Virus record (IMG/VR): IMGVR_UViG_2693429768_000005
Length of the DNA stretch: 55,692 nucleotides
Reading direction: 5' to 3' (one strand)
Source: a virus
Taxonomy: Duplodnaviria; Heunggongvirae; Uroviricota; Caudoviricetes
Below are positions 31,388-31,470 of the stretch, in pieces; position 1 is the first letter of the stretch, and every line of letters starts with the position of its first letter. The position numbers were made by a program, and so were the translations under genes. The notes under the pieces were generated by a model. The model saw only the letters and a list, made by a program, of their open reading frames with translations, was not told the DNA's origin and searched no databases.

Positions 31388-31413
31388 AAGCAAAAACCCG
31401 GCGCGGGGCCGGG
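31388..31413 (-). terminator. tR-prime-like rho-independent terminator just upstream of holin
   Basis: CCCGGCCCCGCGCCGGG hairpin followed by TTTTTG on minus strand, 17 bp before holin ATG. Confidence 0.55.
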
Positions 31414-31441
31414 TAATTACAATTTCGCATTGTTAGGAAAT

Positions 31442-31470
31442 ATTTTAATCTGTTTGTTTGCGCTCTACAA
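31442..31470 (-). promoter_or_regulatory. candidate pR-prime-like late promoter
   Basis: minus-strand TTGTAG-N17-TAAAAT about 35 nt upstream of the terminator hairpin. Confidence 0.4.

Follow-up and report, generated by a model that had tools for sequence, protein, structure and literature searches.

In the 55,692-nucleotide (nt) DNA of the IMG/VR virus record IMGVR_UViG_2693429768_000005 (hereafter the window), the segment 31470-31388 on the minus strand, directly upstream of the holin gene, is probably a Q-dependent late-gene control cassette of an mEpimmI-group prophage. This reading draws on the architecture of the unit, its pattern of conservation, its similarity to the late promoters of phages with Q proteins of the same family, and terminator read-through as the sole route to the holin. 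A first-pass annotation had placed a unit resembling pR' and tR' of lambda at this position, about 5 kb from Q. Its coordinates are right for the minus strand as read from the sequence, and the description is borne out by a pause element, by the top rank of the site in a weighted model, and by the modular conservation of the unit.

Architecture of the unit upstream of the holin gene

On the minus strand, the unit consists of TTGTAG, a 17-nt spacer, TAAAAT, ATTTCCT, AACAAT, and GCGAAATTGTAATT, followed by a hairpin. The candidate -35 hexamer TTGTAG (31465-31470) matches the consensus at three of six positions and is the weakest part of the unit. The -10 hexamer TAAAAT (31442-31447) matches at five of six positions and aligns with the -10 elements of the lambda, P22, Stx2, ST104, ES18, and EhrS59 late promoters. 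The -10-like sequence AACAAT (31429-31434), a predicted sigma-70-dependent pause element, starts seven bases past the -10, and the transcript is predicted to start at or next to its first A (31434). The promoter-proximal part of the spacer, AAACAAACAGAT (31448-31459), is a candidate Q-binding element without similarity to the lambda Q site. In lambda, the Q site is located between the -35 and -10 elements. Studies of the lambda-Q system indicated that Q loads onto RNA polymerase paused shortly past the transcript start, with the pause caused by a -10-like hexamer and the Q site lying upstream of this pause element (PMC4005639, PMC9388147). The lambda pause element, AACGAT at +1 to +6, is experimentally defined and induces the +16 pause needed by Q (PMC4005639).

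The plain match to the sigma-70 consensus (3/6 plus 5/6) is no better than chance, and the sigma-70-like promoter of the first-pass annotation would not stand on this match alone; it becomes credible through AACAAT, which that annotation had missed and which lifts the unit above the chance level. The spacing of about 35 nt between promoter and terminator given earlier is approximate: 27 bases separate the end of the -10 from the hairpin, and the distance from the predicted +1 to the hairpin is about 20 nt. The unit is single-copy, with no second copy of the spacer or of the pause-element core in the window, and a search of Rfam returned just a sub-threshold chance match to the rnk leader (24.5 bits vs the gathering score of 55).

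The tR'-like terminator hairpin (31414-31396, minus strand) has the stem ACCCGGC (31414-31408)/GCCGGGT (31402-31396), with seven pairs of which six are G-C, and the loop CCCGC. The stem is followed by T5, within TTTTTGCT (31388-31395, run TTTTTG, ending at 31391). The earlier claim of a strong terminator is solid: the hairpin has a folding energy of -13.3 kcal/mol, is listed first among 14 terminator-like sites in a 9.5-kb scan, and is marked as a terminator in four GenBank entries, those of mEp021 (TERM_5, score 100), mEp010, mEp013, and mEp044. Past the hairpin, the minus strand reads TTTTTGCTTTGTT, GGAGG, AAAATCT, and ATG, with GGAGG (31383-31379) being the ribosome-binding site of the holin gene and 31371 the first base of its start codon. 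Just 7 bases separate the T-run from the ribosome-binding site, leaving no room for a promoter, so that the holin and the other lysis genes would be reached solely by read-through of the terminator. If +1 is 31434, the terminated RNA is predicted to be about 44-47 nt long.

Similarity to the late promoters of other phages

As reference late promoters, we read the sequence 3' of Q in lambda, P22 (with annotated promoter, qut, and tR'), Stx2_EH1910, ST104, ES18, and EhrS59. All six phages show the same layout of a -10 element, 5-7 nt, AACNNT, and a terminator, to which TAAAAT, 7 nt, and AACAAT correspond in the window. In an unsupervised MAFFT alignment of eight late-promoter regions, the invariant columns outside the terminator were AAC..T of the pause hexamer. 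We then scored the window with a two-block weight matrix, comprising the -10 element and the pause element with the three bases before it, which was trained on the six outside phages only. The matrix ranked position 31447 first of 111,334 positions on both strands, with 21.2 bits vs 15.6 for the next site, and inclusion of ten more columns gave 23.6 for this site vs 12.8 for the next. When three-phage subsets were used for training, the site ranked 1st to 8th.

In mEp021 (L001 12826) and in the RM9245 prophage (L004 12165), the next-best model score belongs to a second site, TAAAAT-CTGCCT-CACAAT. It lies where the gene for the large terminase subunit ends, between this gene and that of the portal protein.

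Conservation of the unit among relatives

Relatives of the unit were collected as 19 copies found by homology and 43 IMG/VR copies found by pattern search, 62 in all. The -10 TAAAAT and the pause element AACAAT are invariant in the 19 homology-derived copies, and the 3' arm of the terminator is invariant in these and likewise in all 62. The 5' arm shows one change, A to G at the outermost base, which still pairs with T; it is the sole change in the 62 copies as well. The terminator loop, in turn, has seven variants among the 19 copies and 11 among the 62. Across the 19 copies, the discriminator has four variants, the -35 hexamer has five, and the distal spacer is variable. The proximal spacer is kept as AAACAAA-N-R-GAT (N = C, T, or A) in 19/19, whatever the -35 and the upstream gene, and one of the 43 pattern-derived copies has AAACAAGCAGAT there. 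From this conservation, we infer that AAACAAACAGAT is a candidate Q-binding element. The -35 position falls into a type A (TTGTAG, TTGTGG, TTGTAT, or TTGTTG) and a type B (TCGCGC or TCGCAC). The type-B sequence TCGCGC is preceded by CCATAAT, and the -35 position thus comprises two unrelated classes (L003, L005, L006, L010, L011, and L069).

Comparison of genomes with different neighboring genes revealed where the conserved segment begins and ends. In those with different upstream genes, BLAST homology sets in at the stop codon of the upstream gene (31481 or 31477) or, in type-B genomes, inside the spacer at 31459; in those with a different holin, it ends at about 31379, before the ATG. Both flanking genes vary among relatives while the core of the unit stays, and, judged by these alignments, the unit behaves as a module. 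In one relative (L069, with a Q 76% identical), the upstream open reading frame (ORF) enters the unit and has its stop codon within GATTAAAAT. The DNA element had no match in species-representative genomes.

A distant sister clade (L066-L068), represented by phage contigs about 53 kb long that share the gene order of the window, encodes a Q homologue (P0010) with 48% identity. The Q stop codon overlaps the next ORF, followed by 3 kb of small ORFs and a 111-nt gap. This gap contains TATAAT-TCCCTC-AATAAT, which is followed by an unrelated 10-bp terminator with a T7 run, a ribosome-binding site, and an HP1-family holin gene, and AAACAA is kept at the equivalent place in the spacer. Compared with the window, the architecture is kept in this clade and the sequence is changed.

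The conserved core of the unit could also be read as a nut-like RNA site, with GATTAAAAT as a boxA-like sequence and ACAAU-GCGAA-AUUGU as a boxB-like hairpin presenting a GNRNA loop to an N-like protein. This small inverted repeat does have its GCGAA loop about 8 nt past an A/T-rich stretch, as do the nut-like sites elsewhere in the window. However, no GCTCTT boxA core is present in 31480-31415, the hairpin ends 5 nt before the terminator stem, and a T-to-C change without compensation disrupts its 5-bp A-U stem in 7/19 homology-derived copies and 26/62 overall. With no boxA core GCTCTT(T)A and with an ACAAT/ATTGT stem that is not maintained, we rejected the identification of the unit as a nut site, to which we assign hardly any probability.

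Two nut-like sites on the minus strand lie elsewhere in the window. At 38410-38452, the boxA TGCTCTTTAAAAA precedes GCGCTGAAATGCGT, a sequence similar to the boxB of P22, and the site lies upstream of a terminator-like hairpin at 38169-38151. At 45100-45146, the boxA CGCTCATTAAAAA is followed by a CAC-UGGAA-GUG hairpin. The two sites, located where the nutR sites of mEp021 would be expected, are probably the counterparts of its nutR2 and nutR1, respectively.

Evidence against the cassette and alternative readings

A number of observations weigh against a Q-dependent cassette. The promoter fell below the threshold of the generic sigma-70 scan of 9.5 kb and was not listed, its -35 TTGTAG is poor (3/6), and a TGn extended -10 is absent from the window unit, the type-B relatives, and the sister clade. 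The type-B -35 is found in 7/19 homology-derived relatives, including the viable phage MagusPhagus, and the sister clade, which has AAGCGC at this position (L066 12730-12760), is without a -35. All six reference late promoters have a good -35, making promoter activity the least secure step of the reading. In the weighted model, four of the training phages had their pause elements assigned by analogy, training on lambda and P22 alone placed the window site 39th, and the pre-holin site of the distant clade came just 4th among about 37,000 positions owing to its AAT in place of AAC. The loose pattern TANNNT-N5-7-AACNNT, with 22 matches in the window vs 25 expected, is uninformative alone; as it is so common, the signal is carried by the weighted match. 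Q binding to AAACAAA..GAT in the spacer is only predicted. Finally, the ORF at 34035-34283 (minus strand, 82 amino acids), between Q and the unit, is 95% identical to the core protein mEp021_41, which mass spectrometry detected in virions and for which a helix-turn-helix motif has been reported (PMC11893012). A virion-detected protein encoded between Q and the late promoter is unexpected for a purely early region.

The poor -35 also bears on another explanation, in which the hairpin is just an intrinsic terminator ending the early-right operon of Q and the small ORFs, the hexamers are incidental, and the late genes are reached by polymerase that left an early promoter and was modified against termination by the N-like protein Gp17 at upstream nut sites. 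An N-modified polymerase should pass this terminator, as it does tR' of lambda. The terminator is the sole part of the unit that passes a generic scan, the -35 being weak or absent; the window contains boxA/boxB-like sites near 38452-38410 and 45146-45100, and for mEp021 an early antitermination system of the N-like kind, with three nut sites, has been proven (PMC11893012). This explanation leaves several findings unaccounted for, however: the invariance of TAAAAT and AACAAT while their neighbors and the loop vary, the top match in the window to outside late promoters, the same -10 and -10-like pair before a different terminator in the diverged clade, and a conserved full-length Q that would be left without a target. 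We consider it unlikely.

The missing -35 in a third of the relatives and in the sister clade suggests that initiation may need Q or another early protein, and the promoter of the cassette may be weak or activator-dependent. Taken further, the late site would not be self-sufficient: it could be a -10-only promoter needing Q or an early activator, or, less likely, a qut site without a promoter of its own, at which Q loads onto polymerase of the early operon that still carries or has re-acquired sigma-70 and pauses at TAAAAT or AACAAT. In its favor, strict conservation of the -10, the -10-like element, and the proximal spacer goes along with the absence of the -35 in a third of the relatives and in the distant clade. 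The stretch from the last small ORF to the unit holds no terminator, so early transcription would run into the unit, and sigma-70 can engage elongation complexes in trans. Against this, TTG occupies the -35 position in most relatives and is followed by a spacer of 17 nt, every clade has a near-consensus or consensus -10, and all characterised Q proteins load onto complexes initiated at an adjoining promoter (PMC9388147). We give a late site of this kind only a small chance. If it were true, Q would act here by activator-dependent initiation or promoter-independent loading, neither of which has been described for the Q proteins of lambda, 21, or 82.

The Q protein

The first-pass annotation had assigned Q to 36289-37011 (minus strand), and this is borne out. 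The 240-residue product matches Pfam PF03589 (E = 1.8e-30) and PHROG 127 (E = 1e-78), and aligns to the lambda Q structure (PDB 7ubm, E = 4e-39) over residues 1-114 and 148-238. It shares 35% identity with lambda Q over the full length and 38-40% with the Q proteins of SEN22, ST104, and ES18; G39 is conserved, as is the N-terminal segment forming the RNA-exit nozzle. By these matches, it is a true lambda-Q-family protein over its full length, presumed to be the trans-acting regulator of the late unit.

Compared with lambda Q, residues 115-147 (36571-36669, minus strand) are 33 extra residues carrying a second CxxC...CxxC pair, and the four CxxC motifs together give a weak match to the DnaJ CXXCXGXG pattern. 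Alignment of the family indicated that the second pair is present in most members, with lambda Q being a short form. As the extra pair is absent in lambda, the DNA-contacting "arm" is probably built otherwise than in the solved lambda structure. The protein patterns of Q had no match in species-representative genomes.

Separation of Q from the unit

In the window, the Q stop codon lies 4,841 nt from the -10, and among relatives this distance ranges from 1,927 nt (mEp021) to 6,482 nt (L069). To compare layouts, we surveyed the best 80 lambda-Q-family loci from IMG/VR, locating terminators and matches to the -10 plus pause element 3' of Q. In all 68 loci outside the mEpimmI type, which are not independent lineages, the first terminator lies 10-247 nt past the Q stop, and in 52/68 a recognisable -10 and pause element lies 26-64 nt past it. 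In all 12 mEpimmI-type loci, the unit is found 4.1-6.3 kb 3' of Q, with the terminator 20 nt past the pause element. The separation of Q from the unit is, across the loci surveyed, an unusual layout, and our literature search found no described case of a Q gene apart from its own late promoter. Q is diffusible and loads onto RNA polymerase at its own DNA site in trans, proximity being unnecessary (PMC9388147). A distance of 4.8 kb thus poses no mechanistic problem, and adjacency appears to be a habit of layout and no mechanistic requirement. The earlier proposal that Q "acts at a distance" is wrongly framed, since Q works in trans (PMC9388147).

The other proposal made earlier was that a second Q-controlled promoter, the true pR', lies immediately 3' of Q, the pre-holin hairpin then being one of several terminators passed. 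A look-alike at 36311-36266 (minus strand; GTGACA, 16 nt, TAAGCT, 7 nt, AACGAT) straddles the Q stop codon, all mEp-type loci have internal terminator-like hairpins 1.3-2.0 kb 3' of Q, and the virion-associated protein is encoded within the interval. The look-alike, however, is coding sequence that varies at third codon positions, and it is absent from mEp021 and mEp044, where a different ORF follows Q. It is not among the eight best sites of the outside-trained model and has no terminator within 1.2 kb 3' of it. Moreover, the Q stop overlaps the next ATG in 13/13 relatives checked, leaving no intergenic space 3' of Q. We rejected the look-alike as a late promoter, its coding nature and its absence from mEp021 and mEp044 pointing to chance resemblance. 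With no intergenic space, no conserved look-alike, and no second copy of the unit, the proposal of a promoter at this place is not supported, and we regard it as very improbable.

The interval of small ORFs

Between Q and the unit, the minus strand carries an array of 19 tightly packed small ORFs (31479-36289), in agreement with the count of about 19 given earlier, which the ORF map reproduced. In Pfam, none of the 19 scored above the curated cut-off and 18 had no match, with the ORF at 31479-31706 giving a sub-threshold match to KilA-N. Gene content in the Q-to-holin interval (31479-36289; L001-L009 and L066-L071) is hypervariable, the number of small ORFs ranging from 8 to about 28. Among the genes found there in relatives are Lar-like anti-restriction, ASCH, HAD/PNKP, and PAPS-reductase-like ones, which suggests that the interval is a slot for accessory or anti-defence genes. 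We infer that the 19 small ORFs belong to an early, N-like-dependent transcription unit.

Several further features were observed in this interval. A strong terminator-like hairpin, AAGCGGGATAAAACCCGCTT followed by TTTTTT, is located at 34989-35008 (minus strand) inside the ORF at 34793-35026; an equivalent first terminator is found 1.4-2.0 kb 3' of Q in 12/12 mEpimmI-type IMG/VR loci and bears the label T9 in the annotation of mEp554. A perfect 9-bp inverted repeat, AAAATGGCA ... TGCCATTTT (33747-33777, minus strand), overlaps the start codon of the ORF at 33564-33773, where the otherwise tightly packed array has one of its few gaps. The best consensus promoter of the 9.5-kb scan (TTAACT, 18 nt, TATAAT, 10/12; 33811-33840, plus strand) adjoins this repeat on the opposite strand.

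Phage group and gene order

The region shows 92-96% DNA identity to the phages mEp010, mEp021, mEp013, mEp515, and MagusPhagus, is 85-87% identical to mEp554 and mEp044, and is matched in 35 complete Escherichia coli genomes. On the basis of these identities, the window is an E. coli prophage of the mEpimmI (mEp021-like) coliphage group. The mEpimmI phages are temperate, Nus-dependent, non-lambdoid coliphages, frequent in human faeces and reported to equal lambdoid phages in frequency in human faecal samples (PMC11893012).

According to the ORF map, the genes around the unit are on the minus strand. They run in the order NinG (37594-38289), RusA (37190-37597), a 61-residue ORF, Q, the array of small ORFs, and then a gap of 107 nt (31478-31372), which carries the unit and separates the last small ORF from the holin gene. 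The first gene of the late operon encodes the HP1-family holin (31171-31371, 66 amino acids; Pfam PF16080, E = 1.6e-14; PHROG holin). It is followed by the genes for the endolysin (30679-31170; PF00959, E = 2.1e-44; PHROG endolysin) and the Rz spanin (30221-30691; PF03245, E = 7.2e-22; PHROG spanin), after which come the packaging and structural genes.

Discussion

Every step of the mechanism that we propose for the cassette is drawn by analogy with lambda. Sigma-70 RNA polymerase would start at the promoter with the -10 TAAAAT, with +1 at or next to the first A of AACAAT. Sigma region 2 would then re-bind the -10-like AACAAT in the first transcribed bases, and the enzyme would pause at about +16. 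Without Q, it would resume and terminate at the hairpin and T-run, yielding an RNA of about 45 nt and leaving the holin silent. Q, a freely diffusing product of the early operon 4.8 kb upstream, would bind a DNA site in the promoter spacer (candidate AAACAAACAGAT) and load onto the paused enzyme. The Q-loaded enzyme would pass this and later terminators, reaching the lysis genes (holin, endolysin, and spanin) and, past them, those for packaging and structure. In this scheme, the array of 19 small ORFs separating Q from the cassette would consist of early genes.

The cassette shares with lambda and P22 a Q of the same family (PF03589) and the order of -10, 6-7 nt, AACNNT, intrinsic terminator, and lysis genes. 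The P22 arrangement is compact too, with a hairpin starting at about +31, and we presume that the mechanism is identical to that of lambda and P22. In these two phages, however, the Q stop and the start of the cassette are no more than tens of bases apart, whereas here 4.8 kb and 19 ORFs lie between. The lambda -35 is TTGACT, while that of the window is weak and in some relatives absent, and the spacer, as the candidate Q site, is unrelated in sequence to that of lambda. The window hairpin starts at about +21 and would give an RNA of about 45 nt, compared with the 194-nt 6S RNA of lambda.

Outside the mEpimmI group, the closest Q proteins are those of ST104, ES18, and EhrS59 (38-40%), which are of the long form with two zinc ribbons and the extra CxxC...CxxC. 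The transcript start of the ST104/ES18 type, CTAACAGT-AGAAATCCGT, is similar to CTAACAAT-GCGAAATTGT of the window (AACAGT-AGAAATCCGT vs AACAAT-GCGAAATTGT). The cassettes of these phages differ in adjoining Q, in having a good -35, and in a terminator about 40 nt past the pause element vs 20 nt in the window. Shiga-toxin phages resemble the window in having kilobases of accessory genes between Q and the holin and a short terminated pR' transcript (PMC7547250, PMC6266700). Their order is Q, pR', tR', tRNA genes, stx and others, and holin S, so that the accessory genes are Q-dependent, whereas those of the window, being upstream of the cassette, are predicted to be early and Q-independent.

Within the group, the GenBank record of mEp021 names the gene "putative late gene regulator Q" and marks the hairpin as TERM_5, and the 2025 paper on mEpimmI phages notes a Q-lambda-like protein (PMC11893012). 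That paper and the mEp GenBank records give no late promoter, pause element, or qut site and no remark on the separation of Q from a promoter; the supplements of the paper make no mention of promoters or terminators (PMC11893012). Except for the hairpin, the cassette of mEpimmI phages is unannotated so far.

Our analysis thus locates a predicted late promoter and qut site of the mEpimmI phages, previously unannotated. The terminated RNA of about 45 nt, which would be constitutive if the promoter fires without Q, is analogous to the lambda 6S RNA and to StxS, and the weak or absent -35 poses the testable question of how the promoter fires. The split between Q and the cassette gives a hypervariable slot of 2-6.5 kb for small genes; their predicted control is early, in contrast to the arrangement in Shiga-toxin phages. 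Whether control is early or Q-dependent bears on guesses of when and why such accessory genes are expressed.

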